Shown here one piece after another: positions 350 through 20,406 of a stretch of 34,501 nt of DNA; positions within the stretch are counted from its first letter, which is position 1, and each line of letters begins with the position of its first letter. The stretch lies in the NCBI GenBank assembly GCA_021639925.1, contig JAJXEL010000002.1, positions 930-35,430 of the forward strand, written 5' to 3'. The notes under the pieces are model-generated. The model was not told where the DNA came from, did no database searches, and worked only from the letters and a program-made list of their open reading frames with translations. This DNA comes from Alphaproteobacteria bacterium. Lineage in GTDB: Bacteria > Pseudomonadota > Alphaproteobacteria > CAAGCB01 > CAG-977. The position numbers and the translations under genes are program-made.

Positions 350-385
350 AGGAACACCTAAGCAATTTTGGACAGGATACTGACT
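331..385. repeat. copy 2 of the 55-bp direct repeat; spans the last 8 codons and stop of the repressor, the RBS, and the first 6 codons of the downstream ORF
   Basis: Identical to 1-55. The offset is exactly 330 bp, a multiple of 3. Confidence 0.95.
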
Positions 386-780
386 ATCTGTGCAGATGAA
401 GGCTTGTTTTCAGACGTAAAAAGGTCATATATAGCTAAAATAAGCTCCGCTTTTTTAGCGGGATTTAAAGCTCTATTCGTTGCAGTTAAAGATTCTTCAA
501 CGGTTTCAATGGCTGAGAGCAATTCCTTTCTGTTCGGTTTTACAGACGTTCCCTCAGAAAATTCTCTTCCCGTAGCCAACCAGTCCAAACTTACACCAGC
601 AACGTTTGCCAAAGAAGCAACCGCTTTAAAAGAGGGTTTTGCTTTTCCGTCTCTCCATTTCGCAACTTGTTCAGCCGTCACCCCGGCTATTTGCGCTGCA
701 TTTTGAAGTGTTCCGATTCTGTTAAGAACAGTTTTAAAGCCAGTTTCAAAATAATCATCGTTACTTGAAACTTTTGTCAT
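358..780 (-). CDS. prophage repressor, CI/XRE-type helix-turn-helix, no S24 peptidase domain (140 aa from the ATG)
   Basis: HTH segment LQNAAQIAGVTAEQVAKWRDGKAKPSFKAVASLANVAGVSLDWLATG. It is divergent from ner across an operator-rich AT-rich intergenic region. The ATG at 780 has AGGA upstream, whereas the track start at 786 is TTG. Confidence 0.75.
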   Translation of the reverse strand: MTKVSSNDDYFETGFKTVLNRIGTLQNAAQIAGVTAEQVAKWRDGKAKPSFKAVASLANVAGVSLDWLATGREFSEGTSVKPNRKELLSAIETVEESLTATNRALNPAKKAELILAIYDLFTSENKPSSAQIVSILSKIA

Positions 781-799
781 CGACAAAAATCCTTTTTCA

Positions 800-1594: not shown

Positions 1595-2063
1595 AGCGAT
1601 GTCAAAGAAATTCAAAGACACACAGACGCTTGATTTATTTGAACAGGTTTATCCTGTCCGCAGACCGCCGGTGATCTCCCACACCGTTGATTTGAGCGGC
1701 AAGATCAAGCGTTTGGTGTCTTTGATTTTAAAAGAGAGCCCTAAAAGCAGAGAGCAACTGGCTGCCGAAATGTCGGAAGCTATGGATTGCCCGTCTTTTA
1801 GTAAGGCGATGTTGGACAATTATTCCAGCGAAGCCAACGAGCTCCATCAAATTCCTTTGTATCGCTTTATCGTCCTCGTCCGCGTGGCAGATGCCGCGTG
1901 GGCGTGGGACGAATTGTTAAAAGACGAAGGCTTTACCGTTTTGTTTGGAGACGAAGCTCTTTTAGCTGAACGCGGTCGTGTTGCCCAACAAATTGAAGAA
2001 TTGAAAAAATATCAAAAAGAATTGAACTCGGTTGCGCCCGTTAAAATACGGAGGCGGTCATGA
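1584..2063 (+). CDS. hypothetical early protein (alternative start ATG 1599)
   Basis: Uninterrupted ORF whose stop overlaps the MuA start (ATGA at 2060-2063). No family recognised. Confidence 0.5.
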   Translation: MKVKAMSKKFKDTQTLDLFEQVYPVRRPPVISHTVDLSGKIKRLVSLILKESPKSREQLAAEMSEAMDCPSFSKAMLDNYSSEANELHQIPLYRFIVLVRVADAAWAWDELLKDEGFTVLFGDEALLAERGRVAQQIEELKKYQKELNSVAPVKIRRRS

Positions 2064-4129
2064 AAGAATGGTTCACGCCGTTAGAATTAGCAGAGTTAAA
2101 TCTGCCGAGTTTGCCTAAAACGACACAAGGAATGTCTAAAAAGGCCGATACCGAACACTGGCAATCGCGTCCTCGTTGCGGTCGCGGCGGCGGCAAAGAA
2201 TATAACATATCGAGCTTACCCGCTAAAGCCAAAGAAGAATTGGCGCGCCGTTCATTGTCAAGCGTTCCGGAACGCCGGTCAAAGGCCGTGATAGAACGTC
2301 CTGATGACGCCGATCTGTCCGAAGCCAAAGCATGGCAACGTGAAACAGCTGAAGCGCGGGCGGCGGTTTTGGATGCGATTGACAATCTGGCGGTAACGTG
2401 CGGAAAAAATAATGCGATTAAAGCCGTTTTAAACGGACTTAAAAACGGAACGTTGGAACCGTCTTTCATTGAACTGATCCGCAAAGCGAACGCAAAGACC
2501 GGCGAAACGGTCAAATTATCCCGCGCCAGCTTGTTTAATTGGTACAAACTGCGTGAAACGGCAGGCTTAAAAGGATTGATGCCCACCCCTGCCAAAGATG
2601 AACAGATTGTTGCGCCGGAATGGTTTGAATCGTTCGCCCGTTTGTATTTCAGACCGCAAAAGCCGTCTTTGATGTCCTGTATTGAAATAATGCAGGAAAA
2701 TATGCCCGCGCTTGCCCCAAGTTACAGACAGGCGAAATTTTACCTTGAAAAAATCGGGAAACTGCTGGCGAACAAAGGACGTGTCGGCGCGCGTGAAGGG
2801 AAAGCTTTTCGGGCTTACGTTTCCCGCGACGTATCGCATTTATGGCCGGGGGCGATTTACTGCGCCGACGGACATACGTTCGATGCTGAAATCGCGCACC
2901 CGATCCACGGCAAGCCGTTCCGCCCCGAAGTCACGACGATTATAGACGTATATACCCGCAAAGCCGTCGGGTTCAGTTTGAACATCGTCGAATCGACCGC
3001 GTCCGTTATGGACAGCTTGATCCATGCAGTCACAACAAACGGTATTCCGGACGTGTTTTATGTCGATAACGGCAACGGCTTTAATAATACGACGGTTGAT
3101 ATGTTCTGCGCCCGTTTGGGTATCACGAAAAAGAACAGCATTGCCTACAATTCCCAAGCACGCGGCGTGATTGAGCGTTTGCATCAGACGATTTGGGTCA
3201 AAGCGGCGAAAATGCTTCCGACTTACATGGGCAAACCGATGGATCCGGAAGCCAAGCAAAAGGTTTTTCATATCAACCGCCGCGAAGTCAAACAAGACGG
3301 ACGAAGCCGTTTATTACCGGATTGGCAGGGTTTTGTCGCATATTGCGAACGGTGTTTTGACGCCTATAACGATCACCCGCATTCTTTTTTGCCGGTCATT
3401 GTAGATTCTGAAACAGGCAGAAAACGTCACATGACGCCGAACGAAGCTTGGGAAGCGGGAAATCCTGAATTTCCCGATTATCGTCCCGACGTGCTAACGC
3501 CGGCGGAAACAGATGATTTATCGCGTCCTTACGTTGTCCGTAAATGTTCGCGCTGTTTGGTCAGCCTGTTTAATAACGTGTACGGTTCGCATCTGCTGAC
3601 ACATTACCACGATGAACAGGTTGCCGTCGGCTTTAACATTCATGATGCGTCAAAAGTATGGGTGCGCGAATGGGACGGGAAACTTCCGGGACGTTTAATT
3701 TGCGTCGCCCGTTTTGAAGAAAACAAACGCGCCTTCATGCCCGTATCTTATGACGACAAGAAGAAATTACAAAGGGCGCAGGGACGGCTTGCGCGTCTTG
3801 ATGAACAGCAGAAAGAAGTCTTGGAAGAATTGGGACAAAGGTATTTGCCTGCCCCCGAAACCGTGCCCGTGACGGCAGAAGAAGCCGCCAAAAACGAAGA
3901 ATTTTTAAAAGAATTTGAGGAAGAGCAGAACGCTCAATCCGTTGCCGATATTGACACGCCTGCGGCTTGGTTCCGCAAGGCCGTCAATATCAAGCAAAAA
4001 ATCGATAACGGAGAAAGTATTGATCCGGAAGATCGTCGTTGGTTCGCCAAATATTCCAAGTCACCCGAATACATTCAACGCATGGATTTTGCGCATGATT
4101 TCGGTATGGAAGCGGCTCTGACGGCATAA
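2060..4129 (+). CDS. A: Mu-type DDE transposase (MuA-like)
   Basis: N-terminal Mu-type DNA-binding segment (EWFTPLELAELNLPSLPKTTQGMSKKA). DDE core blocks IYCADGHTFD, FYVDNGNGF and RGVIERLHQTIW. 689 aa, GGAGG RBS, positioned before the MuB-like ATPase. Confidence 0.9.
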   Translation: MKEWFTPLELAELNLPSLPKTTQGMSKKADTEHWQSRPRCGRGGGKEYNISSLPAKAKEELARRSLSSVPERRSKAVIERPDDADLSEAKAWQRETAEARAAVLDAIDNLAVTCGKNNAIKAVLNGLKNGTLEPSFIELIRKANAKTGETVKLSRASLFNWYKLRETAGLKGLMPTPAKDEQIVAPEWFESFARLYFRPQKPSLMSCIEIMQENMPALAPSYRQAKFYLEKIGKLLANKGRVGAREGKAFRAYVSRDVSHLWPGAIYCADGHTFDAEIAHPIHGKPFRPEVTTIIDVYTRKAVGFSLNIVESTASVMDSLIHAVTTNGIPDVFYVDNGNGFNNTTVDMFCARLGITKKNSIAYNSQARGVIERLHQTIWVKAAKMLPTYMGKPMDPEAKQKVFHINRREVKQDGRSRLLPDWQGFVAYCERCFDAYNDHPHSFLPVIVDSETGRKRHMTPNEAWEAGNPEFPDYRPDVLTPAETDDLSRPYVVRKCSRCLVSLFNNVYGSHLLTHYHDEQVAVGFNIHDASKVWVREWDGKLPGRLICVARFEENKRAFMPVSYDDKKKLQRAQGRLARLDEQQKEVLEELGQRYLPAPETVPVTAEEAAKNEEFLKEFEEEQNAQSVADIDTPAAWFRKAVNIKQKIDNGESIDPEDRRWFAKYSKSPEYIQRMDFAHDFGMEAALTA

Positions 4130-4922: not shown

Positions 4923-5506
4923 TGGCAAATAAACCGATACACCTGCGCATGAAAGCCAAAAATCCCTGCGGCCGTCAGGCAATGTGGGAAGCAATCAGGG
5001 CAAATAAAGACGGATTTACTTTTCGGGCAATCGTTGACAGCTTTTCTGACCTGAATGCGGCGACATTTCGTACATATCTGCGCGGCCTTGTTAAAGCCGG
5101 TTTTGTTGAAATGTCCGACAAAGAACGCTATCAGCCCGCTACGTTCAAATTGATTAAAGACGTTGGCATTAACGCCCCGAAAGTCAATCGGTACGGTCAG
5201 TTTGTAAAGCAGGGACAAGGCAACGAACAAATGTGGCGGGCGATGAAAATGTTAAAGCAATTCAAGCTGTCAGATTTGCAGGTTGCCGCCGGAACGGAAG
5301 AATGTTCAATAAGTTTTGAAACGGCCAGAAGTTATGTTTCCGCGCTTTATAAAGCAGGATATTTGAAGCGCCTGGACGACGGAACTTACTGTTTTATTGC
5401 CTCACGTTACACGGGGCCGCGCGCGCCGATGATCCAGCGATTAAAAACCGTATTCGATCCGAATTTGCAAAAGATCGTCTGGCAGCAGGAGGCAAGCGAT
5501 GACTGA
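4922..5506 (+). CDS. hypothetical early protein with two tandem winged-helix-like modules
   Basis: Internal repeat: MWEAIRANKDGFTFRAIV...TYLRGLVKAGFVEM versus MWRAMKMLKQFKLSDLQ...SYVSALYKAGYLKRL. The ATG at 4922 overlaps the MuB TGA. Confidence 0.5.
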   Translation: MANKPIHLRMKAKNPCGRQAMWEAIRANKDGFTFRAIVDSFSDLNAATFRTYLRGLVKAGFVEMSDKERYQPATFKLIKDVGINAPKVNRYGQFVKQGQGNEQMWRAMKMLKQFKLSDLQVAAGTEECSISFETARSYVSALYKAGYLKRLDDGTYCFIASRYTGPRAPMIQRLKTVFDPNLQKIVWQQEASDD

Positions 5507-7961: not shown

Positions 7962-8284
7962 TGAGTGAACATTTAACTCAACAGTGGATCGTTGAAAACA
8001 AAAACAGAGCTGTTTCAGCGGAAGATTTAATCAAACAGCTGGATTTTACTTCGTATACTTACAAAAAATACGATAGTACGGTTTTTGCTATGAAAATGGG
8101 CGTTTTTAATGTCCCTCTTGTCGATAATTTAAGCAGAGATTTACATGATGGAACCCATACAGGCTATGAGGGAACGCAGGAATTTGCCGAGTGTTTAGGT
8201 AAAAGAATGGCTCTTTGCTTAAATTACTTTAAGGGTAAAACAAACAAAGAAATTGAAGAAGCTCTAAATGGCGGGGTGAAATGA
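7961..8284 (+). CDS. hypothetical early protein (107 aa)
   Basis: ORF, TAATG coupling to the upstream gene. Confidence 0.5.
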   Translation: MSEHLTQQWIVENKNRAVSAEDLIKQLDFTSYTYKKYDSTVFAMKMGVFNVPLVDNLSRDLHDGTHTGYEGTQEFAECLGKRMALCLNYFKGKTNKEIEEALNGGVK

Positions 8285-8691
8285 CTGCAGATAAACGTCC
8301 CTTGTTGGCAAAAGTTCATATCGCTAAAGCTCAACTGAACCTTGACGACGAACAATACCGCGATATTGTGCGGCGCGTTACTGGAAAGGACAGCGCGGCA
8401 AAGTGCCGTTATTCCCAACTGGTCGATTTGATCAATGAATTTAAATCCCTAGGCTGGAAAACGCCGAAGAAAAAGGCGTTCCGCCGCACGCCGTCTGACG
8501 GAATTAAAAAAATCTATGCGCTTTGGGGCGAGTTGCAGACTGCGGGAGCAGTGCAATCAACCGACAAAACCGCGCTTGATGCTTTTGTGAAAAAGTACAC
8601 CGGCATCGACAGCGTTCAGTGGCTTTTGCCCGCCAAACAGCAAAAAATCATCGAAATCCTGAAGCAATGGATTAAAAGAATCGGGGGATAA
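8281..8691 (+). CDS. gemA: GemA-like protein (Mu gp16 / DUF1018 family)
   Basis: LLAKVHIAKAQLNLDDEQYRDIVRRVTGKDSAAKCRYSQLVDLINEFKSLGW matches the conserved GemA N-terminal block. It sits immediately upstream of the mor-like gene, as in Mu. Confidence 0.7.
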   Translation: MTADKRPLLAKVHIAKAQLNLDDEQYRDIVRRVTGKDSAAKCRYSQLVDLINEFKSLGWKTPKKKAFRRTPSDGIKKIYALWGELQTAGAVQSTDKTALDAFVKKYTGIDSVQWLLPAKQQKIIEILKQWIKRIGG

Positions 8692-8692
8692 A

Positions 8693-9091
8693 ATGTCGCA
8701 GTTGACAGGAGTTTTGGCGGAATTTGAAGAAATCGCCGGCTTTGCCGCAGCAATCAAAATTGCGGCGGTCAAGGGCGGAACGGTTGCTTATATCCCGCAA
8801 CCGCGAAACCTGAAGCCCGAACACTGGCTTTGCGCGGCAATCGGGTCGGAAGACGCCATTAAAATCGCAAAACAATTCGGCGGCAATGAAATTGAAATTC
8901 CTTTGGGCCCGTTCGGCGGGAATCGCGGCCGCGTGTGGCGCATTATCCGTCAGGCAATCAAAGACGGCCATTCCGCCGCCAAAGCCGCCCGCTTGGCCGG
9001 CGTAACGATGCGCACCGTCCGCCGCCACAAATCCGGCGAAACAGCGGGAAATAAGGAAAAGGAGGGTCAGGGAGTGTTGTTTTTATTTTAA
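8693..9091 (+). CDS. mor: Mor/C-family transcriptional activator
   Basis: GGTVAYIP block (compare GGGQVYIP in Mu Mor) and C-terminal HTH SAAKAARLAGVTMRTVRRH. About 130 aa, last gene of the early/middle block. Confidence 0.6.
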   Translation: MSQLTGVLAEFEEIAGFAAAIKIAAVKGGTVAYIPQPRNLKPEHWLCAAIGSEDAIKIAKQFGGNEIEIPLGPFGGNRGRVWRIIRQAIKDGHSAAKAARLAGVTMRTVRRHKSGETAGNKEKEGQGVLFLF

Positions 9092-11364
9092 CATCCAAGG
9101 GATGATTTCAGTTCCCTTATTTCTTTTAAGTGAGTATTTCTATTCTTCGTTTCTTCTTCTTCCAACAACCATTTTTCTGCATCATCTAACATACTTAAAA
9201 TCTCTTTTTCTTTTAAGCCATGTAACCTGACATAAGAGGCAAGCTGCTCAGAAAAAATATAGACATGATAAGCTTTTCGTCTATCACTTTCATAACAATT
9301 CTTTAATATTCTTAAGCTCTTAACAAGTTCTTCTTTCGCTTCATTATTTTTTCTTGAAGCTTCAAAATTTGCGTTGAACATAATAACGGCTTGAGTGTTT
9401 AACAAAGAAAAATCGCCCAAAAATGAAGATGAGATCGCTTTTTGAATCCAAAAAAATGCATCTGTGAAATTTTTTTGTTTAGATAAATAAAGCGAAAACT
9501 GCTGCTTTAAGTAAGGAGAATTATCTTTTTGCATAGCATTCATATAAAATAATTTTCCTTCTTCTATATTTTTAAAGTATTTATATATATAATCTGAATC
9601 ATAGCCTCTACGTTTAAAGATATAGTAATCAACGATATTAATCGGCGATATCCTTTCATGGAATTGAATTAAAACCTCCTTCATTAAATCTATAGAAGCA
9701 TTGTTTAAAATCGTCTCTTTTAATATTTTTGATCTAATTTCAAAAAATTCTTGATTTTCTTTGTATTTTACGCTTGATGGATCTATATCTACGATTAGAT
9801 TTCTTAATTTTTCAATGGACGCCACGGTATCCAAAATAGGTTTTTTAGAAAAAGAAATTATCATATTCATGGACATCGGTAGACGACAGTCTTTCATATA
9901 GCAAATAGCTAACAAAATTTTTAAAAGTTCCGGATCATTAAGCTCCAGATCAGAAAACAAACGAGAAAAACGTTCTTTTAATGAAGAATTCTTTATGTTT
10001 TTTTCCACAAACTCAAAAATGGTGTCATTATCTATAAAACGAAAATAAGTTGTTTTTTTGAGATTTAAAGGGATTGTGTTGAATAAATTTGAAGCATCTT
10101 TTTTTGATATATTATCAATTATTATTTTAGAAAAATTCTCTTTTTTTATTTTATGAGAAACTGTTTCATAAAAATAAATTAAATCTGTAGCGATAATTTG
10201 TATATTTTTCTCTTCTTGAAAGACGCGCAGAGCATCAACATCATTTACAAAATCATCTATGAAAATCGTCAACTTTTGCCTCTCTTTTTTTATAAGATTA
10301 ACAATATACAATGCTATTTCTTTCGTCGGAGAGGTAAGATATATTTTTTGCTTTCCTTTTAACTCACAAGCCAATTGCATTAACAAAGTACTTTTCCCAG
10401 AAGACGGAGTCCCAAGAAGTAAAATATTTTCATTTTTATATATTTTTTCAAGTACATTATGAAATGTAGATATTTTATACAGACCACCCCCCAAAACATC
10501 AATCCACTCGGGTTGATTTCCACAATAAAAATCATCAATATTTCTAAAATAGGGGGCAATAGTTGGGACAGAATATCTAGAAATGCTATTTTGTCTCTGT
10601 GTAATCTTTTTTTGGTTTTGAAGCTCTTTAATATGTTTTAAAAAGTCTTTTACATCGCCCGTTATCGGCTTAAATCCTAAAGATTCATAATATTCTGTTT
10701 TTTCTATATTATTTGATATAATCCAGAAATTCTTTTTGTTCCTTGAGTTTGAGCACGCCCTATTTATAGCAGCAAGGACATCATTATCTTTCATAGATGT
10801 CCCGATAAAGACAGTAGGACACTCTTCACATTGAATAGACAATCTATTGAATAAAGTGTTCTCATATTGCAAATGCCCCGTAGCCATGTCTATAGCCGAA
10901 AAAGGCATTTTTTGATTATTTAAAATACTTCCATGTAAAGGTATATAACGAATGATTTCAGGGGAAGAGGGTTCTCCTCTTATAGTAACATCACGTAGTG
11001 AAAATGAAGAATTATCTTCATATATCTTATATATCAAATCGTCAACGTTAACTGTAAAAATATTATTACAATTTAATTTTAATATATTTTTATATTCTGG
11101 ATCATATTCATCAACGGTAAATGTTTCTTTAAGAAATTTTTCTAACTCTCCAGGGAATCTAGCTTTAATTATAGACGTAACCTCTTGTAAATCATCACCT
11201 GAAACCTGATACTTTTTTTTCAGTTGCATACATAATGCTTGACCTATGGGAAGATTCTCTTTACTTTTATTTTTGGCGTAAACAGAAAATCCTGCACCTA
11301 AGAAAAGATTGATCTCATTTTGGAGATCTTGGTTGAAAATTTCTATCATTTCAGATTTCAGCAT
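9088..11364 (-). CDS. SIR2-like / P-loop NTPase (STAND-like) / helical-repeat protein; Avs5 (AVAST type V)-like defence candidate, 758 aa
   Basis: SIR2_2-type blocks LFLGAGFS, FTVNVDDL, IPLHGS and VFIGTSMKDNDV. Walker A LLLGTPSSGKSTLLMQLA and Walker B LTIFIDDF. Long helical C-terminus. The ATG at 11364 is preceded by GAGGAG at a 6-nt spacing. The track start (11451) lies in a terminator hairpin. Strongly AT-rich: hand counts of two 60-nt lines gave 15% and 35% G+C, versus about 63% in a flanking line. Confidence 0.8.
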   Translation of the reverse strand: MLKSEMIEIFNQDLQNEINLFLGAGFSVYAKNKSKENLPIGQALCMQLKKKYQVSGDDLQEVTSIIKARFPGELEKFLKETFTVDEYDPEYKNILKLNCNNIFTVNVDDLIYKIYEDNSSFSLRDVTIRGEPSSPEIIRYIPLHGSILNNQKMPFSAIDMATGHLQYENTLFNRLSIQCEECPTVFIGTSMKDNDVLAAINRACSNSRNKKNFWIISNNIEKTEYYESLGFKPITGDVKDFLKHIKELQNQKKITQRQNSISRYSVPTIAPYFRNIDDFYCGNQPEWIDVLGGGLYKISTFHNVLEKIYKNENILLLGTPSSGKSTLLMQLACELKGKQKIYLTSPTKEIALYIVNLIKKERQKLTIFIDDFVNDVDALRVFQEEKNIQIIATDLIYFYETVSHKIKKENFSKIIIDNISKKDASNLFNTIPLNLKKTTYFRFIDNDTIFEFVEKNIKNSSLKERFSRLFSDLELNDPELLKILLAICYMKDCRLPMSMNMIISFSKKPILDTVASIEKLRNLIVDIDPSSVKYKENQEFFEIRSKILKETILNNASIDLMKEVLIQFHERISPINIVDYYIFKRRGYDSDYIYKYFKNIEEGKLFYMNAMQKDNSPYLKQQFSLYLSKQKNFTDAFFWIQKAISSSFLGDFSLLNTQAVIMFNANFEASRKNNEAKEELVKSLRILKNCYESDRRKAYHVYIFSEQLASYVRLHGLKEKEILSMLDDAEKWLLEEEETKNRNTHLKEIRELKSSLGC

Positions 11365-11404
11365 AATCAACTCCTCATAAAATACCCTTAAAAGATATAA
11401 CATA

Positions 11405-11429
11405 TCCCCCTGACAAATGACACAATTTT
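11405..11429. repeat. copy A of a shared 25-bp element tccccctgacaaatgacacaatttt, in the 5' flank of the SIR2-NTPase gene
   Basis: Identical to 18196-18220. It lies 41-65 nt upstream of the ATG at 11364 on the minus strand. The track ORFs read it in different frames in the two copies, so it is non-coding. Confidence 0.9.
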
Positions 11430-11432
11430 TTA

Positions 11433-11460
11433 GAATGGCAGATTCTGCCATTCTTTTTTT
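11433..11460 (+). terminator. strong intrinsic terminator oriented for + strand transcription
   Basis: gaatggcag (11433-11441) pairs with ctgccattc (11445-11453): 9-bp perfect stem, 3-nt loop, then 7 T (11454-11460). Confidence 0.7.
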
Positions 11461-11489
11461 GTGTTTATTGAAACAGAGGGAAAATAACT

Positions 11490-11690
11490 ATGGCTGATTT
11501 GGCTGACATGGCGCAGGCAGAACAGGAACGACTGAACGCCCGATCCGCAGAGCGTCTGACGCGGAATCATGCGCTGGAAACATTGGAATTTTGCGCCGAA
11601 TGCGGGGAACCGATTCCCGAAGCCCGCCGTTTGGCCGTTCCGGGATGCCGTCTGTGCATTGATTGCCAGACGGAACGGGAGTGCGGCTGA
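11490..11690 (+). CDS. TraR/DksA-family C4 zinc finger protein
   Basis: CAECGEPIPEARRLAVPGCRLCIDCQ is a four-Cys motif. 66 aa. Confidence 0.75.
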   Translation: MADLADMAQAEQERLNARSAERLTRNHALETLEFCAECGEPIPEARRLAVPGCRLCIDCQTERECG

Positions 11691-12004
11691 TGGCGGCGTT
11701 TATCGGATTCATTAAAGATTACTGGGGCGTTATTGTCGGTATCGCAGGATTTTTCTTCGGCTGGGTAAAGTTTACGGCGGCCAAGACTTACGCCTTGAAA
11801 GAAGATTTAAGCAAAATCGAAAAACGTTTGGACGTTTTGGAACAAGGATATAAGAACGTCGCCAGCAAAGACGACATTCACAAAATCAGCATTCAAGTTG
11901 AACGATTGACGGGCGAAATGAAGCGCATTGACAGCGTTTTGACACGCACGGAAGCCATTTTGCAAAGACAGGAAGAATATCTGCTGAACGGAGGGCGCAA
12001 GTAA
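11690..12004 (+). CDS. membrane-anchored coiled-coil protein (Mu gp25-like, possibly DUF2730)
   Basis: The ATG at 11690 overlaps the upstream TGA. N-terminal TM helix YWGVIVGIAGFFFGWV, then a heptad-like region. Confidence 0.45.
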   Translation: MAAFIGFIKDYWGVIVGIAGFFFGWVKFTAAKTYALKEDLSKIEKRLDVLEQGYKNVASKDDIHKISIQVERLTGEMKRIDSVLTRTEAILQRQEEYLLNGGRK

Positions 12005-12297
12005 TGGAATATCGGCAGTTAATTACGGAAAACCAGCGTCTGGCCGTACTAAAGTTTTTAAAGGACGACGGCGATTACACGCTGAACACGTCGATTTTGC
12101 AAGACGGATTGACGGCGATCGGTCTGGATATTTCCCGCGATAAACTGGAAACGGAAGTCAACTGGCTAAAGGAACAGGGATTAGTTGAAATTGAACATTA
12201 CCGCAGCGTTACGGTGGTTAAGCTGACGGGACGCGGATTGGACGTTGCCGAAGGGCGCGCCGTCGTTCCGGGCGTAAAACGTCCCAGACCGGTTTAA
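12004..12297 (+). CDS. hypothetical protein, winged-helix-like (Mu gp26 position)
   Basis: ORF with TAATG coupling, located upstream of the gp27-like gene. Confidence 0.45.
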   Translation: MEYRQLITENQRLAVLKFLKDDGDYTLNTSILQDGLTAIGLDISRDKLETEVNWLKEQGLVEIEHYRSVTVVKLTGRGLDVAEGRAVVPGVKRPRPV

Positions 12298-12309
12298 AGG
12301 GCGGTTAAA

Positions 12310-12858
12310 ATGGTTCGTAAATCCACAATCAAACAGCTTCCGGCCGACATTCGCGCCGAGCTTGACCGTTTATTAGCCGAAGGGCGCGTCACGATTGACG
12401 AAATCGTGGCGCATTTAAAAAAGCTGGGCGCATCCGTGTCACGTTCGGCGGTCGGACGTTATTCGCAAAAATTTGAAGACGTGTCCCGCAAAATGCGCGA
12501 AGCCAGAGAAGTTTCAGCCGCGTTTGCCCAAGAGTTGGGCGATTTGAAAAACGATGAAGTCGGCCGCCAACTGACCGAAATGTTGCGCACGGTCATTTTT
12601 AACGTTCTGCTTCCGAAAGTGTCGAACGAAGAAGCTGCTGTCAAACCGTCTGATTTAATGCTAATGGCCAAAGCGATTAAAGATTTGTCTTCAGCCAATA
12701 AACTATCGGCGGATTTAGAATTGAAGATTCGGAAAGAAGCTGCGGAACAAGCCAAAGAGGAAGCCATCAAAGGCGTTATTGCCGCCGGAAAGAAAAACGG
12801 TCTGTCCAAAGAAGTGCTGGACGCGATGAAGCGCGGCGTTTTCGGGTTGGAGGAATAA
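12310..12858 (+). CDS. Mu gp27-like protein (DUF3486), putative small terminase subunit
   Basis: STIKQLPADIRAELDRLLAEGRVTIDEIVAHLKKLGASVSRSAVGRYSQKF matches the DUF3486 N-terminal pattern. Directly upstream of the large terminase. Confidence 0.7.
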   Translation: MVRKSTIKQLPADIRAELDRLLAEGRVTIDEIVAHLKKLGASVSRSAVGRYSQKFEDVSRKMREAREVSAAFAQELGDLKNDEVGRQLTEMLRTVIFNVLLPKVSNEEAAVKPSDLMLMAKAIKDLSSANKLSADLELKIRKEAAEQAKEEAIKGVIAAGKKNGLSKEVLDAMKRGVFGLEE

Positions 12859-14334
12859 ATGCGGAAATTGCCCTCCGTTTTTCTGCCGTATCAAAAACAG
12901 CTGATGCAAAGCGTTTACGCCAACCCTGTAACAGTTGTCGAAAAATCAAGGCGCACCGGGTATTCCTGGGCAATGGGCGGCATCGCGGCTTTGATTGCTT
13001 CGGCGCAAAGTTCGGCGGGCGGCCAGGACGTGCTTTATTTAGGCTATAATTTGGAAATGGCGCGGGAGTTTATAGATTATGTTGCCGAGTTTTCAAAACA
13101 GATTTTAACGGTCACTACCGACGTTCAGGATACCGTATTTGAAGACGACACCCGCCCCGAAAAGAGCATCAAGGCGTTCAGAATAGAATTTGCAAGCGGG
13201 TTTAAAGTCTTAGCCCTGCCGTCGGTTCCGCGTTCCTTGCGCGGTATGCAGGGGCTGGTCGTTATTGACGAAGCCGCGTTTCACGACGACCTGCCCGAAG
13301 TAATGAAAGCCGCCTTTGCTCTTTTAATCTGGGGCGGCAAAGTCGTTATCATTTCGACGCACGACGGGGCGGAAAACCCGTTTAATCAATTGTGCGAAGA
13401 CATCAAAAAAGGCAACCTGCCCTATAAACTGCTGCACTGTTCGTTTGACGAAGCCGTGCAAGACGGGCTTTTCAAGCGGATTTGCTTTACCAAAGGCGAA
13501 GAGTGGACACCGGAAAAGGAAACGGCGTGGGTCGATGAAATCCGCGCGTTTTACGGAGATTCCGCCGCCGAAGAGCTGGACTGCGTTCCCGCGCGCGGCT
13601 CGGGAAGCTATTTTTCACGGATCATTTTGGAAAATTGCCAAGATAGAACCGCCCCGGTTTTGCGCTACACTCAACCCGCCGAGTTTGTTTTAAATGAACG
13701 GCGTTCCGACATTACAAAGGAATGGACGATGGCGGTTCTGCGCCCCGTCATTGATTCCCTGCCTTTGGTAAAACGCACTGTTTTGGGACAAGACTTCGGA
13801 CGCGACGGCGACTTGTCCGTTATTTGGGTATTGCAGGAAGAAAACCCGACGCTTTGGAAAACGGCGTTTGTTTTGGAACTGCGTTCAATCCCGTTTGACG
13901 TCCAACAACAGATTTTATTTGAAATCATAGACAAGCTGCCGTTATTTCATCACGCCAAGTTTGACGCGCGCGGCAACGGACAGAGCCATGCCGAAGCGGC
14001 GTTGCAGAAATACGGCGCGTCCAAAGTCGAATGCGTTATGGCGTCGCCCAAGTGGTACGGGGAATGGTTCCCGAAATACAAACGCGCTTATGAAGACCGA
14101 AGCATCACCGTTCCCGAAAGCGAAGACATTATCGCCGATCATCGTTTGGTCGTTTTAAACAAAGGCGTTCCGGGAATGAGCGACAAGCGCGTCAAAGGTT
14201 CGGACGGCAAATACCGCCACGGCGACAGCGCAGTCGCGGGCGTTTTGGCTTGGGCGGCGGCGCGAACGGAAGGCGAACCTGCGTTCGGAGCAAGCGTCAA
14301 CAAGCCGGAAAGGAGATTCAATGTTTGGATTTAA
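12859..14334 (+). CDS. terminase large subunit (Mu gp28-like)
   Basis: 491 aa. N-terminal VEKSRRTGYSWAMG ATPase-like block and VVIDEAAF Walker B-like block. Positioned between the gp27-like gene and the portal. Confidence 0.8.
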   Translation: MRKLPSVFLPYQKQLMQSVYANPVTVVEKSRRTGYSWAMGGIAALIASAQSSAGGQDVLYLGYNLEMAREFIDYVAEFSKQILTVTTDVQDTVFEDDTRPEKSIKAFRIEFASGFKVLALPSVPRSLRGMQGLVVIDEAAFHDDLPEVMKAAFALLIWGGKVVIISTHDGAENPFNQLCEDIKKGNLPYKLLHCSFDEAVQDGLFKRICFTKGEEWTPEKETAWVDEIRAFYGDSAAEELDCVPARGSGSYFSRIILENCQDRTAPVLRYTQPAEFVLNERRSDITKEWTMAVLRPVIDSLPLVKRTVLGQDFGRDGDLSVIWVLQEENPTLWKTAFVLELRSIPFDVQQQILFEIIDKLPLFHHAKFDARGNGQSHAEAALQKYGASKVECVMASPKWYGEWFPKYKRAYEDRSITVPESEDIIADHRLVVLNKGVPGMSDKRVKGSDGKYRHGDSAVAGVLAWAAARTEGEPAFGASVNKPERRFNVWI

Positions 14335-15688
14335 GAAAAAGCAATCGGCGGAAAAGTTTGTTGAATCTGTGGGCATTTCCGTAGAAGAAGAAGGCTTTAC
14401 AAAACTGACGGGCAACAAAGACCGCTCTTTATCGTCATTAACGCAGGAAAGAATGCAGGAGCTGGCTGTTTTCCTGTGGAAAAGTAATCCTCTAGCCAAC
14501 CGTATTATTGAATTGCCGCTTGTTTATTTGCTGGCCGAAGGCGTAACAATGAGCGTTCAAGATGAAACGGCGCAAGCATGGTTGGACGAATTTTGGAATG
14601 ACCCGATCAATCAAATAGACGTCAAACTGCCGAAAAAAGTCCGCGAAATGTCCTTGTTCGGCGAACAGTGCTGGCCTGTTTTTAAAAATCCGACAAACGG
14701 CGCGGTACGGCTGGGGTATCTGGATCCCGGACTGATTAAAGAAGTAAAGACAGACCCCGATAATACCGAGCAGCCGATCGGCGTTATTACAAAGGCTTTG
14801 GGCAGAAAGCGCAAATCAAAAAAGTACCGAATCATCGTTCCCGGTTCGGAAAACATTTTCGGAGAAGAAGCAAAGAAAATCCGCGAAGAATTTAACGACG
14901 GCGAATGTTTTTACTTTAACATTAACGCGCTGTCGTCGTCTTCGCGGGGGTTGTCGGATTTATTGGCGACAATGGACTGGCTGGATTTGTATGATAAAGC
15001 TCTGTTCGGCGAGGTTGAACGCTGGGACGCTCTGCGGTCTTTTATCTGGGACGTGACGCTGCGCGGAGCTACCGAAGAAACCGTCAAAAAGCGCGCTTCG
15101 GAAATCGAAGTGCCGTCTTCGGGCGGCGTGCGCGTGCATAACGATGCGGAAACATGGCAGGCGGTTACTCCTGATTTACAGGCGGCAAACGGTGCGGAAA
15201 ACGCGAGGACGGTGCGCAATCATATTTTGGGCGGATCTACATTGCCGGAACACTGGTACGGCGGCGGTGGAGACGTCAACCGTTCAACAGCGGGCGAAAT
15301 GGGCGAACCGACCTTTAAAACGTTCAAGTTTCGCCAGACCGAGTGGAAACATATCCTTGAAACCGTTTGTTTTTACGCCGTTTATTCAAGATTGGAAAAA
15401 ACGGGAAATATCCCCGAAGACCTGCGGGATTACCGCCCCGTCGCACAGTTCCCCGAATTAACGCACCGCGACACGTCGGTTTATGCGGCGGCGTTGCAGC
15501 AAACCGTCGTCGCCGTCGGCATTGCCGTTGAAAAAGGCATGATGACGGAAGAAACGGCCGTATCCGTTATCGGTTCAATGATTTCCCGTATCGGCATTGA
15601 AATTGACCCTGTCGAAGAATTGGAAAAAGCCCGTGCTAAAGCCCACATTCAGGCAGAGGACGACATTTACGATGAACAAGACGTTTGA
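14321..15688 (+). CDS. portal protein (Mu gp29-like, DUF935)
   Basis: 455 aa, AGGAG RBS, located between terminase and MuF. Acidic C-terminus. Confidence 0.75.
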   Translation: MFGFKKKQSAEKFVESVGISVEEEGFTKLTGNKDRSLSSLTQERMQELAVFLWKSNPLANRIIELPLVYLLAEGVTMSVQDETAQAWLDEFWNDPINQIDVKLPKKVREMSLFGEQCWPVFKNPTNGAVRLGYLDPGLIKEVKTDPDNTEQPIGVITKALGRKRKSKKYRIIVPGSENIFGEEAKKIREEFNDGECFYFNINALSSSSRGLSDLLATMDWLDLYDKALFGEVERWDALRSFIWDVTLRGATEETVKKRASEIEVPSSGGVRVHNDAETWQAVTPDLQAANGAENARTVRNHILGGSTLPEHWYGGGGDVNRSTAGEMGEPTFKTFKFRQTEWKHILETVCFYAVYSRLEKTGNIPEDLRDYRPVAQFPELTHRDTSVYAAALQQTVVAVGIAVEKGMMTEETAVSVIGSMISRIGIEIDPVEELEKARAKAHIQAEDDIYDEQDV

Positions 15689-17018
15689 AGCGGAAAGAAA
15701 AAAGCAGTTAAAACGCTTTACGGACAGCGTTCGGCAAACGAACGCGGACATTGACGCTTTTTTAAAAAAGGCACGTCAGGAAATTAAAATGCGCTTGGCC
15801 GAAGCCCCCTCCGATTATCAGATATGGGCTTTGACAAACGTTCAAAAAGACATCGAACGCGTCGCCGAAGAATTAAAGTCCGAACTGCAGGCCGCGGGAA
15901 CGACAGGGTTTGACGCGGCGATAAATATCGGCGCGGCTGTTGTGGACGAACCGCTTAAATCCGCATTTAATTATGATTTAAACGCCCGCGTTCGGCAGGC
16001 AAGCACGGAACAAATCAAAGCAATGCGTTCTTTTTTAACCGACCGTTTGGCAGACGTCGGCGAACAGGCGAAAAAGAAAATAAACGAACAGCTGGGGCTG
16101 TGCCTGATTGGGGCGCAAAATCCGTTTCAGGCGGCGCGGGAAATAGCGGCGCATCTGGGAACAAACGGCAGATCCCGCGCGCGGCGGATTGTTAATACGG
16201 AACTCGGCCGCGCCTTTTCCGTAGCGACGCAGGAACGGTTAAAACAAGCGCAGGAAGCCGGATTAAAAATGAAAAAGCAGTGGCGGCGGTCGGGAAAAAT
16301 CCACAGCCGTTTAACGCACGATCTGGCGGACGGGCAAGTCGTTGACGCCGACAAACCGTTTATTGTCGGCGGCGTTAAAATGATGTATCCGCGCGATCCG
16401 TCCGCCCCCGTTTCGGAAACAATCAACTGCGGGTGTGTTTGCCTGCCCTATATGGACGATTGGGAAGTCGAACACCCCGCCGACGTTCCCTTTACCGTTG
16501 AAGAATTAAACAAAAGCCCCGAAAAGCGGATTGTCCAAGACATCAGGCGGGAAGATTACCGCAACTGGGCGGAAAAAATATTAAGCCGGGCGGACGGCGT
16601 GCGTCCGGACGGCACGTCCAAAACCGCAGGAACGATCAGCGCAGATATTTTACAGGCGTTAAAGGTGCGCGGTCTGGAACCTGCCAGCCCGGACATCAGC
16701 ATTACGGACAAACAGCTGATCCACCTGTCGCGCAGTGTTAAAAAAGAACGCGGACAACAGGTTGATTTAAACACAATTAAAAACCTGCCCGACCTGTTGA
16801 ATAAAGCCGACGTTGTGTTGCGCTCCAAAAACAAAAACGAGCTGGTCTATGCGTTTAAACGCCCCGACGGGCTGTATGACAAAGTGGCCGTGAACCTGCG
16901 CCGAAAAGAGGATAACGCCAAAAACGCCCAAACAAGAAACTGGATTGTAACGGCGGGGAAAATGGAAGAAAGAAATATCAGAGATACAAATAGTTATGAT
17001 GTTCTGAAAGAACGTTAA
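15672..17018 (+). CDS. MuF (gp30)-like head morphogenesis protein with a C-terminal extension of about 180 aa
   Basis: MuF-type core RARRIVNTELGRAFSVATQER...HSRLTHDLADGQVV...INCGCVC. The ATG at 15672 overlaps the portal 3' end. Confidence 0.75.
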   Translation: MNKTFEAERKKQLKRFTDSVRQTNADIDAFLKKARQEIKMRLAEAPSDYQIWALTNVQKDIERVAEELKSELQAAGTTGFDAAINIGAAVVDEPLKSAFNYDLNARVRQASTEQIKAMRSFLTDRLADVGEQAKKKINEQLGLCLIGAQNPFQAAREIAAHLGTNGRSRARRIVNTELGRAFSVATQERLKQAQEAGLKMKKQWRRSGKIHSRLTHDLADGQVVDADKPFIVGGVKMMYPRDPSAPVSETINCGCVCLPYMDDWEVEHPADVPFTVEELNKSPEKRIVQDIRREDYRNWAEKILSRADGVRPDGTSKTAGTISADILQALKVRGLEPASPDISITDKQLIHLSRSVKKERGQQVDLNTIKNLPDLLNKADVVLRSKNKNELVYAFKRPDGLYDKVAVNLRRKEDNAKNAQTRNWIVTAGKMEERNIRDTNSYDVLKER

Positions 17019-17287: not shown

Positions 17288-17305
17288 AAAAACAAAAACC
17301 GAAAT

Positions 17306-17337
17306 AAAGCCGTTTAACAGCGGCTTTGTCATTTTTT
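17306..17337. terminator. bidirectional intrinsic terminator between the convergent 38-aa ORF and the 263-aa gene
   Basis: The stem 17306-17314 / 17319-17327 (aaagccgtt / agcggcttt, one G-U pair) has loop taac. There are 6 T at 17332-17337 on the + strand and a T-rich tract on the minus strand (rc of 17286-17305). Confidence 0.65.
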
Positions 17338-17383
17338 GGCTATGGTTCTTACGTCTTTATCCCCAAAACGCACACAGACCCGT

Positions 17384-18175
17384 TTAATACCCGTTTAACG
17401 GCGATGTTTTTAAGGCAAAAACATTTTTATACATTTCATCACGGAGCAAAAGAGGTATTGACTTAAGCAAATCATACTGAGAATAAAAATAGTAAAGAAT
17501 CAGAGAGGCAATACGCATTGCAATATTTGCATCATCACGTTGGGATTGGGAAAGATAAGATTGAAGGGCATAAGGACTGTGGTGTTTGTACGCGCATAAC
17601 AACTGATACATTTTCCGTTCCATGAAAATATGAGGTAGAATCTCTCTTTCCGCATCAGACAAAGACGGATCGTTTTGTTTTTCAGAAAGCTGTTTTTCCA
17701 TCTTTTCCAGTGTGGAACCGTGCCAGACTTTCCTATAATTCTTTCGGTTTAAGTAATCCGCATCGCTTTTAAATGTGACATTCGGTAATTTAAAGCGTTC
17801 CGGGTTTATTTGTTTAATTTTATACAAATATTTTCCTGCTTTTGCGGGCTGTTGGCTTAGGTGAGGCAAGCTTTCAATCCACCCAAAATCAAAAAATTCT
17901 TTAATTTTTTCTTCTGTATTGCAAATCAGGAGCCATTCCAAAACGATGAACTGTTCAAACATTTGACAGGCAATAATGCCGCCGCTGTACGGGTCGGCCG
18001 AAGATAAATATAGAACGCTTCTTGATGCGTTAAGAGCGCGTTTAAAAAATAAACTTTTTATCCTATCCTTTATCGTTCTTTCAGGAAAATTTTGTTTTTC
18101 CCCGAATCTGCACAGCTTTTTTAAGGTTTTCCTTAGCTCTTCCGTAGAGCAGTTATAATAATCTTCCATACACAT
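17384..18175 (-). CDS. hypothetical cargo protein (263 aa from ATG 18175; ATG 18169 is also possible), no family recognised
   Basis: Long minus-strand ORF inside an otherwise + strand late operon. Lower G+C than the flanks (hand counts of two lines gave 32% and 43%). The track start at 18214 is GTG and lies inside the shared 25-bp element. No clear SD sequence. Confidence 0.6.
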   Translation of the reverse strand: MCMEDYYNCSTEELRKTLKKLCRFGEKQNFPERTIKDRIKSLFFKRALNASRSVLYLSSADPYSGGIIACQMFEQFIVLEWLLICNTEEKIKEFFDFGWIESLPHLSQQPAKAGKYLYKIKQINPERFKLPNVTFKSDADYLNRKNYRKVWHGSTLEKMEKQLSEKQNDPSLSDAEREILPHIFMERKMYQLLCAYKHHSPYALQSYLSQSQRDDANIAMRIASLILYYFYSQYDLLKSIPLLLRDEMYKNVFALKTSPLNGY

Positions 18176-18195
18176 TTTAACAAAAACAGGGGCTT

Positions 18196-18220
18196 TCCCC
18201 CTGACAAATGACACAATTTT
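18196..18220. repeat. copy B of the shared 25-bp element tccccctgacaaatgacacaatttt, in the 5' flank of the 263-aa gene
   Basis: Identical to 11405-11429. It lies 21-45 nt upstream of the ATG at 18175 on the minus strand. Confidence 0.9.
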
Positions 18221-18289
18221 GAACGATTCCCGAATGCCTTATGGTGTCCTTATCGGTTGCAAAATGCAAGAACTTTTAAGGAGACCGCT

Positions 18290-18511
18290 ATGGCAAACAA
18301 GGAAAACGAAGCGTCGAAAAATGAAGCGGAAGCAAAAAAGGTTTCCGCCGGCATCGGCAAAGCAGACGTTTTAAAAATTCTGTGCGACAACAAAGTTGAA
18401 ATCATCGGACGCAAAGGTATTGCCGAACGTGACGTGCTGTCTTTTGCCGAACGGGGAAACGACGTCGTTGTCGTGACCTGCGACGGACGCAAACACGTTT
18501 TGAAAAAATAA
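18290..18511 (+). CDS. hypothetical small protein (73 aa)
   Basis: TAAGGAG lies 6 nt upstream of the ATG at 18290. Lys/Glu-rich N-terminus. Directly upstream of the protease-capsid gene. Confidence 0.5.
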   Translation: MANKENEASKNEAEAKKVSAGIGKADVLKILCDNKVEIIGRKGIAERDVLSFAERGNDVVVVTCDGRKHVLKK

Positions 18512-18522
18512 GGGGCGCAGGA

Positions 18523-20406
18523 ATGGATACGACTTTTCTGGAGGCTTTGGAAACAACGGAAAAAGGCGCGAAACGCTTTAAAATCCGCGTCATTTCCGCA
18601 GGCGTTTCCAAAAACGGAAACTATTATTCTCCGGCCGTCTTGCGCGAAGCCGCACCGTTGTTTGACGGCGTGCGCGTTCTGGTTCGTTCCGACGAAGAAC
18701 ACATTCAGGGCAAAGGAAAAGATTTCCGCAACTTGATCGGCCGGTTGGCAAATCCCCGTTTTATTGAAAGCACGGCAGAAATTCAGGCTGATTTTGAACT
18801 GATCGAACCGAACGGCGCGATTGCCGTGAAACTGCGCGAAGCGTTTGACGGCGGTATGACGGGATTGTTCGGTTTTTCGATTGACGCGGCGGCTTTAGCC
18901 AAACCGGCGCGCATTAACGGACAAACGGTTCGCGAGGCCTGCAAAATCACGCAGGTCAAATCCGTTGACCTGATCGTCGAACCGGGCGCGAACGGCGGCA
19001 TTATCGACTTTATCGAAGCAGTGAATGAAGAAGGGCAAAAAATGAGTGAAAAAGAGAAAGAAACGAAAGAAGAAACAAGCGTTCAGGAAGCCGCGCCGAC
19101 AATTACGGCGCAGGAGATTGACGATAAAATCCGAATGGTTGAAGCGCGCGCAAACGCCAAAGCGACGATTGCCGCCAGCTCTTTGCCGGAGATGGCGAAA
19201 GCGCGGTTGAAAAAGCATTTTGAAACATTGGCGGATTTTAAAGAAGCCGACGTCGAAACCGCTATTAAGGACGAACTGGACTATTTGGCGAAATTCACGG
19301 AAGCAAACGTCAAAGATCTGGGCACGGGACGCGCTGCGGTTACAAAAGATCGTTTGGAAACGGTTTCGGAACGATTGGATGCCTTTTTTGACGAAGGTCA
19401 TAAAGACCACCGTCAGGCGTTGTCGTTCAAGGAAGCATACGTTGATTTGACGGGCGACGCCAAAGTTTCGGGACGCGTTGAAAATTTCACCGAAGCATTG
19501 ACTTCAACGTCGTTTAGTAACGTTTTGGGCGACGCCATTACCCGCCGTTTGGTCAAAGAATACAACAACAAAACCCAGCTGGACGCTTGGCGAAAATTTG
19601 CCAGCATTGTTCCCGTGTCCGACTTCCGCGAACAAAAACGCGTTCGCATGGGCGGTTACGGCGATCTGGCAACGGTTAGCGAAGCGGCGGCGTATGCAGC
19701 CGTGACCAGTCCGACGGACGACGTTGCGAAGTATTCGGCGGCCAAGCGCGGCGGATTAGAAAAAATCACGATTGAAATGATTAAAAACGACGACGTCGGC
19801 GCAATCCGCCAGATCCCGATTAAACTGGCGCGAGCGGCAAAAAGAACGCTGTCGAAATTCGCGTTCAACCTGATTGTTTCCAACCCGACACTTGGTGATT
19901 CAAAGACGCTGTTCCACGCCGACCACGGCAATCTGGGGACGGTCGCTTTGTCTGCGGGCAGTTTTACAGTGCGCCGTCTGGCAATGATGCAACAAAAAGA
20001 AGCCGGATCGAACGAAGTGCTGTCCATTCCGCCCGCGTTTCTGCTGGTGCCGCCAGAATTGGAAGAAACGGCGTACAACCTGTTTGTCAGAAACACGAAC
20101 AATGACCCGCAGTACGTCCAGACAGTCAAACCCGAAATCATTCCGATCTGGTACGCGACGGACGCCGATGACTGGTATCTGGCCGCCGATCCTGCCGACA
20201 TTACCGGCATTGAAATCGGATTTTTGGACGGTAACGAAGAACCCGAACTGTTTGTTCAGGACAACCCGACTTCGGGCAGCGTGTTCACGAATGACCAGAT
20301 CACTTACAAAATCCGCCATATCTACGGCGGGGCGGTCATTGATTACCGCGCGTTTCAGGGATCGGTCGTTACGGCGCAGCAAAGCGGCGGCGGCAGTAGC
20401 GGTTAA
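18523..20406 (+). CDS. fused prohead protease-like / coiled-coil scaffold / HK97-fold major capsid protein (627 aa)
   Basis: The N-terminal ~170 aa carry S78-like blocks (VLVRSDEEHIQGKG, LFGFSIDAAAL). A charged helical linker covers about residues 180-300. The C-terminal ~320 aa are capsid-like and end in YGGAVIDYRAFQGS. No separate protease or capsid ORF exists in the head module. Confidence 0.65.
   Translation: MDTTFLEALETTEKGAKRFKIRVISAGVSKNGNYYSPAVLREAAPLFDGVRVLVRSDEEHIQGKGKDFRNLIGRLANPRFIESTAEIQADFELIEPNGAIAVKLREAFDGGMTGLFGFSIDAAALAKPARINGQTVREACKITQVKSVDLIVEPGANGGIIDFIEAVNEEGQKMSEKEKETKEETSVQEAAPTITAQEIDDKIRMVEARANAKATIAASSLPEMAKARLKKHFETLADFKEADVETAIKDELDYLAKFTEANVKDLGTGRAAVTKDRLETVSERLDAFFDEGHKDHRQALSFKEAYVDLTGDAKVSGRVENFTEALTSTSFSNVLGDAITRRLVKEYNNKTQLDAWRKFASIVPVSDFREQKRVRMGGYGDLATVSEAAAYAAVTSPTDDVAKYSAAKRGGLEKITIEMIKNDDVGAIRQIPIKLARAAKRTLSKFAFNLIVSNPTLGDSKTLFHADHGNLGTVALSAGSFTVRRLAMMQQKEAGSNEVLSIPPAFLLVPPELEETAYNLFVRNTNNDPQYVQTVKPEIIPIWYATDADDWYLAADPADITGIEIGFLDGNEEPELFVQDNPTSGSVFTNDQITYKIRHIYGGAVIDYRAFQGSVVTAQQSGGGSSG

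Follow-up and report, generated by a model that had tools for sequence, protein, structure and literature searches.

Two predicted Mor-dependent late promoters that share a new recognition sequence and adjoin slots for defense-type cargo in a Mu-like alphaproteobacterial prophage

INTRODUCTION

The closest known counterpart of the locus analyzed here is the late region of bacteriophage Mu, in which the gene order is C, a terminator, the promoter Plys, the genes for lysis and packaging up to F and G, a terminator, the promoter PI and the I protease gene, with 7.6 kb between Plys and PI. The Mu activators C and Mor protect DNA from approximately -55 to -30 (about 26 bp, or nearly three helical turns) at promoters that possess a -10 hexamer and lack a -35 hexamer (PMC2582627; bioRxiv 10.1101/2025.05.02.651988). 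For the accessory genes of Mu-like phages, a share of 6-10% of the genome has been given (Cazares 2014, cited in bioRxiv 10.1101/2024.10.15.618418).

The window, i.e., the whole stretch of 34,501 nucleotides that was analyzed, corresponds to contig C154:930-35430, and an initial annotation made from its letters alone had drawn attention to an identical 25-bp noncoding element at two places. Both places have a counterpart in Mu: site 1 follows the Mor-family gene and precedes the first late gene, and site 2 follows Mu F and a terminator and precedes the head genes, so the map positions match those of Plys and PI. As in Mu, the Mor-family gene follows gemA, a terminator lies just before or within the promoter, and the predicted promoters combine a recognizable -10 hexamer with a predicted upstream element of approximately 25 bp at about -56 to -32, without a -35 hexamer, as at the C-activated late promoters Plys and PI and the Mor-activated middle promoter Pm. 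The differences are equally clear. The box sequence is unrelated to the Mu boxes; the two copies are identical over 25 bp, whereas Plys and PI share a 10-bp match only; two boxes were found, compared with four late promoters in Mu; a single Mor-family gene lies beside gemA, without a separate middle operon or a C gene; and the terminator hairpin of site 1 lies inside the predicted promoter. The regions next to the boxes resemble the accessory slots of Mu-like phages (morons, regions of genomic plasticity) and the defense hotspots of temperate phages in being variable, low in GC and rich in defense-type genes between conserved phage genes, but they differ from these known slots and hotspots in that both end at the first base of a predicted late promoter.

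RESULTS

A 25-bp sequence occurs at two sites of a Mu-like prophage

Pfam domains and gene order identify the window as a Mu-like prophage (Table 1). Late operon 1 opens with a gene for a TraR/DksA zinc finger protein (11490) and continues with DUF2730 (Mu gp25-like), Mu gp27, the large terminase, a gene in portal position that had no Pfam match, and Mu F. From the head genes of late operon 2, the tail genes continue without a gap.

Table 1. Features of the prophage (positions in nucleotides of the window)
Feature	Position	Strand	Basis or remark
Repressor-like HTH gene	358-786	-	Early region
Ner-like HTH gene			Early region, before MuA
MuA transposase gene	2060-4129		Early region
MuB-like AAA protein gene, then DUF3164 gene			Early region
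gemA	8281-8691		Directly before the Mor-family gene
Mor/C-family activator gene	8693-9091	+	Pfam Mor, 26.4 bits (borderline); next to gemA
Cargo of slot 1, SIR2 + STAND NTPase protein	9088-11364	-	Pfam SIR2_2, nSTAND5; GC ~28%
Predicted activator box of late promoter 1	11405-11429	+	Exact repeat; backbone edge; Mu Plys-like position
Terminator-like hairpin (10 pairs, 11432-11454) and T-run	11432-11460	+	Terminator scan, fold
Predicted -10 of late promoter 1, CATTCT	11449-11454	+	Offset scan; block invariant in 7 prophages
Late operon 1	11490-17018	+	Gene order in text
Terminator-like hairpin	17304-17340	both	Closes late operon 1 and precedes slot 2
Cargo of slot 2, DUF5677 protein	17384-18169	-	Pfam DUF5677; GC ~38%
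Predicted activator box of late promoter 2	18196-18220	+	Exact repeat; backbone homology; Mu PI-like position
Predicted -10 of late promoter 2, TATGGT	18240-18245	+	Offset scan across lineages
Late operon 2, first genes: 73-aa protein, head protein (Phage_capsid_4)	18290-20406	+	

The left end of the window contains exact 55-nt direct repeats at 1-55 and 331-385, and a second pair of 55-nt repeats flanks a run of Ns just before the window (C154 775-1314). Because the 55-nt repeats beside the gap look like an assembly artifact of k-mer 55, ORF 2-349 may be misassembled. To the left of the prophage, C154:1-250 harbors two GC-rich 83-nt direct repeats that are 99% identical and two repeats of 55 nt, with a spacing of 167 nt (both stretches belong to locus L121).

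Searching the window for the 25-mer, TCCCCCTGACAAATGACACAATTTT, retrieved one exact copy at each of the two sites, both on the plus strand, and no further match with up to three mismatches on either strand of the window; 100 shuffles gave an expectation of 0 such repeats. The whole 2.09-Mb assembly contains these two copies and no others, and the initial description of a 25-mer confined to two places of the window thus holds. The sequences flanking the copies are unrelated to each other within the window, as had been stated as well. The next plus-strand start codons lie 85 nt from copy 1 (ATG 11490) and 94 nt from copy 2 (ATG 18290), within the 60 to 95 bp reported at the outset, and the ATGs of the minus-strand cargo genes lie 40 nt (9088-11364) and 26 nt (17384-18169) from the element, which does place it in the 5' flank of both. 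The statement that predicted open reading frames (ORFs) run across the copies needs qualification: ORFs 9088-11451 and 17384-18214 do so, but only by extension upstream of their likely starts. Scans of the window with Rfam (gathering thresholds) and for tRNAs gave no matches, and a scan for a third or fourth box with the 17-nt core, allowing up to six mismatches and including a -10 check, found none that was convincing. A literature search for the core sequence of the box returned unrelated primer matches only; the box sequence is new relative to the searchable literature, and the promoter class is already known from Mu.

The element is conserved with the late genes and not with the cargo

Among 27 other genomes of the family, six contain exactly two copies of the 25-mer each, on one strand, 6.9-8.3 kb apart and with at most three mismatches. 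The 25-mer is not frequent across these genomes, and it occupies a fixed position beside the late genes in them. Seventeen further true copies, likewise conserved to the right and variable to the left, came from metagenome contigs, where the scan also returned one chance match. Among the 34 matches to the 16-mer core in IMG/VR, there was one true relative, viral contig L055, and the others were chance matches.

In the six related genomes, conservation extends rightward from the element into the same late genes, whereas the DNA on its left differs. BLAST comparison of the relatives with the window places the start of homology at 11398-11406 (site 1) and 18176-18192 (site 2); on the left side, homology stops at the stop codon of the Mor gene (~9054-9083) and at ~17160. 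The same breakpoint was observed in contigs of animal-gut runs, with homology from 11405 in one and a joint from 17413 to 18197 in another. In an alignment of seven prophages, the mean pairwise identity was 0.14-0.5 to the left of the first base of the element, 0.87-1.0 (mostly at least 0.93) over positions 1-56, and 0.75-0.9 farther downstream. The right-hand boundary of the slot coincides with base 1 of the element in approximately 30 copies. On these comparisons, we assign the 25-mer to the phage backbone rather than to the cargo.

Eight predicted promoters from four lineages share a -10 offset

Distant Mu-like prophages were found via the TraR-like late protein, and sequence shared between its upstream region and the rest of the locus was then sought. 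This revealed three more distant Mu-like lineages, in each of which a lineage-specific element recurs at the same two positions of the map, on one strand and 6.7-7.4 kb apart. The elements are TTGCAGTGAACTGTTCAGAATATTTT in the lineage of L097 and L098, TTAYAGTGAACTGTTCC in that of L099 and L100, and a 34-nt element containing ACCCCTGACATTT in L101. The L097 lineage is represented in the same genome as the window by a second, more distant Mu-like prophage (G000:C166; L097, L102). This prophage has a Mor gene of its own (34% identical) and a separate late box in two copies; its cargo, a 443-aa membrane protein, is encoded between Mor and box 1. The downstream genes fit late promoters: in L097, a Mu I protease gene (Pfam E 6e-69) follows site 2, and box 1 of L101 directly precedes an ORF whose start resembles, by eye, a peptidase M15-type endolysin.

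The eight promoters of the four lineages were anchored at the first base of the shared element and scanned for -10-like hexamers. One with A at position 2 and T at position 6 was present at element positions 44-50 in 8/8 promoters (CATTCT, TATGGT, AAAAAT, CATAAT, GATAAT and, in three cases, TAAAAT). The summed -10 score at offsets 44-45 was 43.9, compared with a maximum of 19.5 in 2,000 random sets of eight sequences. The predicted hexamers of the window lineage are weak (scores of 2.0 and 4.3). Within this lineage, another -10 candidate at positions 27-32 (site 1, TAGAAT or AAGAAT; site 2, AACGAT) reaches a similar score. We prefer positions 45-50 because they are common to all lineages, fit the Mu geometry and lie inside the block that is conserved to position 56. 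With this choice, the element would span approximately -56 to -32 relative to the predicted -10; the other candidate would shift it to approximately -38 to -14. Activator sites of Mu-type promoters measure about 26 bp and are centered near -43.5, directly before the -35 position. A consensus scan for a -35 hexamer at 16-18 bp in a promoter using the element found none on either strand.

With transcription starting near 11461 and 18252, as predicted, the leaders would measure 29 and 38 nt and contain ribosome-binding sites. At site 2 of L097-L100, the ATG of the I protease gene follows the predicted -10 by 6-7 nt, which lends independent support to the predicted start and suggests that the late transcripts of these prophages are leaderless at site 2. 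Activator sites of this promoter type are imperfect dyads. Dyad symmetry of the box is weak in the window lineage (4-5 of 8 pairs around positions 12.5 or 17.5); it is clear in one other lineage only, that of L097, whose box contains the 11-bp palindrome TGAACTGTTCA.

The hairpin of site 1 (-14.1 kcal/mol, z -5.2) extends through the predicted -10 to just short of the predicted start. Among the relatives, its loop varies but its stem does not, and a comparable hairpin with a T-run is present at site 1 of the other lineages. Such a structure would stop transcripts arriving from upstream, i.e., from the early operon or from plus-strand cargo, and late transcripts would start beyond it.

The box varies with the recognition helix of a Mor-family protein

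The product of 8693-9091 scores 26.4 bits against Pfam Mor, a borderline value in view of the cut-off of 24.9. When a profile of this protein and its relatives was compared with the Protein Data Bank (PDB), the sole match was Mu Mor (1RR7), with a marginal E value of 0.031; phmmer with the single Mor protein returned no match in the PDB. The gene is the only Mor-family gene found in this prophage, a count to be read with the whole-genome Pfam Mor search in mind, which returned only the Mor gene of the second prophage, missed 8693-9091 and leaves room for further Mor-family genes.

Within the lineage of the window, the Mor proteins are 88-95% identical. At 49% identity to that of the window, the L101 protein shares its helix (RTV-RHK), and the L101 box (CCCCTGACA) is related. 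In the L097 and L099 proteins, at 34-35% identity, the helix differs (ERYVLKVK), and their box is unrelated. Alignment across the lineages accordingly pairs the helix RTVRRHK with CCCCTGACA boxes and the helix ERYVLKVK with AGTGAACTGTTC boxes, and in these alignments the sequence of the element changes together with the putative recognition helix of Mor.

Variable, largely defense-type genes precede both predicted late promoters

Site 1 presents at least eight distinct left flanks, counted over the relatives and the metagenome copies, and site 2 at least five. The slots measure 1.2-3.0 kb at site 1 and 84-1,075 bp at site 2. The shortest was found in L109 (OQVL01000165.1), where slot 2 is nearly empty, with 84 bp between the conserved block (window 17356-17419) and the element, which is retained at ~5333-5357 on the minus strand of that contig. 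Since this 84-bp slot still has the element, a promoter that travels with the cargo is ruled out. The fold of the conserved block at 17330-17430 was no better than that of shuffled sequences on either strand.

Cargo of the relatives was classified with Pfam and PADLOC. On the plus strand we observed an HNH/CTD11 protein with a DUF2326 protein (PADLOC PDC-M68A/B, ABC-3C-like), a HATPase_c_3 protein whose gene ends ~10 nt before the element, and a gene pair whose first member has a Panacea domain. Minus-strand cargo comprised a PIN_12 protein and a DUF5131 protein with a partner (PDC-M41/M30), and small membrane proteins were present as well. The content of the slots thus varies at a fixed position between conserved flanks, and many of the genes are of defense type. 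The SIR2 + STAND NTPase protein of the window is, by its domains, likely to be the product of an anti-phage defense gene. The stretches just upstream of both predicted late promoters form two accessory-gene slots, filled in the relatives mostly with putative defense-type cargo. Because these slots directly precede each predicted late promoter, the element seems to lie upstream of both cargo genes.

DISCUSSION

A probable pair of Mor-dependent late promoters

We consider it probable that the two copies mark late promoters controlled by Mor via a new recognition sequence, with a slot for defense genes in front of each. The initial annotation had kept a Mor-dependent late promoter element as a fallback; of the readings considered, it is the one best supported by the backbone position, the synteny with Mu and the shared -10 offset, to which the exact repeat and the change of the box with the Mor helix can be added. 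According to this model, the 25-mer would be the upstream half of two activator-dependent promoters reading the plus strand. The single Mor/C-family protein would bind the box of approximately 25 bp at about -56 to -32 and bring host RNA polymerase to a -10 that is weak (CATTCT at 11449, TATGGT at 18240) and lacks a -35. Late transcripts would then start near 11461 and 18252, the first encoding packaging functions, the portal and Mu F, and the second the proteins of head and tail. Mor binding, the start sites and the dependence on an activator are predictions of the model, and the cascade probably leads from the early genes through Mor to the late genes.

The switch type itself is textbook Mu biology. 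Slightly beyond expectation are the ending of both slots at the first base of a predicted late promoter and the unusually clean pairing of boxes with helices. The model provides a testable regulatory map for uncultured gut alphaproteobacterial Mu-like phages, with one Mor-type activator, the new recognition sequence CCCCCTGACAAATGRCACRATTYT, two late transcripts and two bounded slots. Furthermore, the lineage-specific boxes and matching Mor helices of the four lineages offer a small natural data set on DNA recognition by Mor/C proteins, and the constant promoter edge may serve as a practical marker for new cargo genes in metagenomes.

Other readings of the element

A plus-strand promoter might also be built with a different geometry, in which CTGACA would act as -35 and, after 15 bp, TAGAAT (site 1) or AACGAT (site 2) as -10; the element would then lie at approximately -38 to -14 and be used by host polymerase alone or with Mor in an unusual position. 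We regard this as unlikely. In its favor, TAGAAT makes a good -10, the run TTTTTTAGA-TG-CA recalls the stretch of Mu Plys directly upstream of the -10 (T-run, TAGACT), and the offset scan has a small secondary peak at position 27 (score 14.8). That peak, however, is three times lower than the one at 44-45 and is not common to the other lineages, a 15-bp spacer is poor for sigma-70, the geometry is unlike that of the Mu Mor/C sites, and conservation continues undiminished to position 56.

The proposal that the element is a conserved junction for recruiting cargo stands as a description, in that the element begins with the first backbone base to the right of a variable slot, but not as the function claimed. 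A recombination junction at which cassettes are exchanged or captured, without any role in transcription, appears very unlikely to us, even though the cargo boundary falls on the same base in every copy seen, the animal-gut contigs break identically (from 11405; joint 17413 to 18197) and the run of Cs at the boundary varies from 4 to at least 16. No recombinase gene accompanies the cargo, and the left boundary of the cargo has no matching repeat. Moreover, in the other lineages these sites carry other sequences, always with a -10 at a constant distance, and selection that maintains a promoter beside a region of free exchange would explain the sharp edge without a dedicated site. The remaining proposal, a minus-strand promoter or operator shared by both cargo genes and co-regulating them in the lysogen, is hardly credible given what the relatives contain. 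It derives from the arrangement in the window, where both cargo genes point away from the element and start 26-40 nt from it, with promoters that must overlap or abut it; yet the element stays while the cargo changes, and it is found beside several plus-strand cargos with stop codons just before it and beside the near-empty slot of 84 bp. The distances from element to ATG differ by 14 nt, and the minus strand offers neither a sigma-70-type promoter using the element nor a common -10 spacing. The resemblance to a CRP half-site that had been noted on the gene strand did not hold up either: TGTGT-N6-TCAGG matches the CRP/FNR palindrome TGTGA-N6-TCACA at 7 of 10 positions and was not scored as a site, and its first half is not conserved, reading CGTGC at site 1 of four relatives. 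Conservation and geometry were the grounds for dismissing the CRP half-site as well as an ECF-sigma and a cargo-borne promoter.

If the two copies are Mor-dependent late promoters, the box might do double duty. Because the cargo genes start only 26-40 nt away, minus-strand cargo promoters must overlap or abut it, and Mor binding or late transcription could switch the divergent defense gene off or on at induction, which would couple the defense cargo to the lytic cycle; the invariant box could at the same time be a homology anchor for cargo exchange between related phages. We offer this as speculation and think it rather improbable.

Minor observations at the slot boundary

At the left edge of the element, where cargo and promoter meet, most copies have a run of 4-6 Cs; the run has at least 16 in G013 (L011/L028 site 1, G013:C25 ~16225-16263), and a contig of animal-gut run X20 has 8 at window 11405. 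At site 2, this C-run forms one arm of a terminator-like hairpin on the minus strand, CAGGGGGAAAGCCCCTG followed by TTTTTG (18187-18203; fold z -2.0). Palindromes of a G-run and a C-run like that at 18187-18203 are also present in relatives at site 2 and, in L101, at both sites. One contig with both boxes, CAVCSV010000037.1 (L021/L025), is filed as Limosilactobacillus gorillae; it carries an alphaproteobacterial Mu-like prophage and was probably mis-binned.
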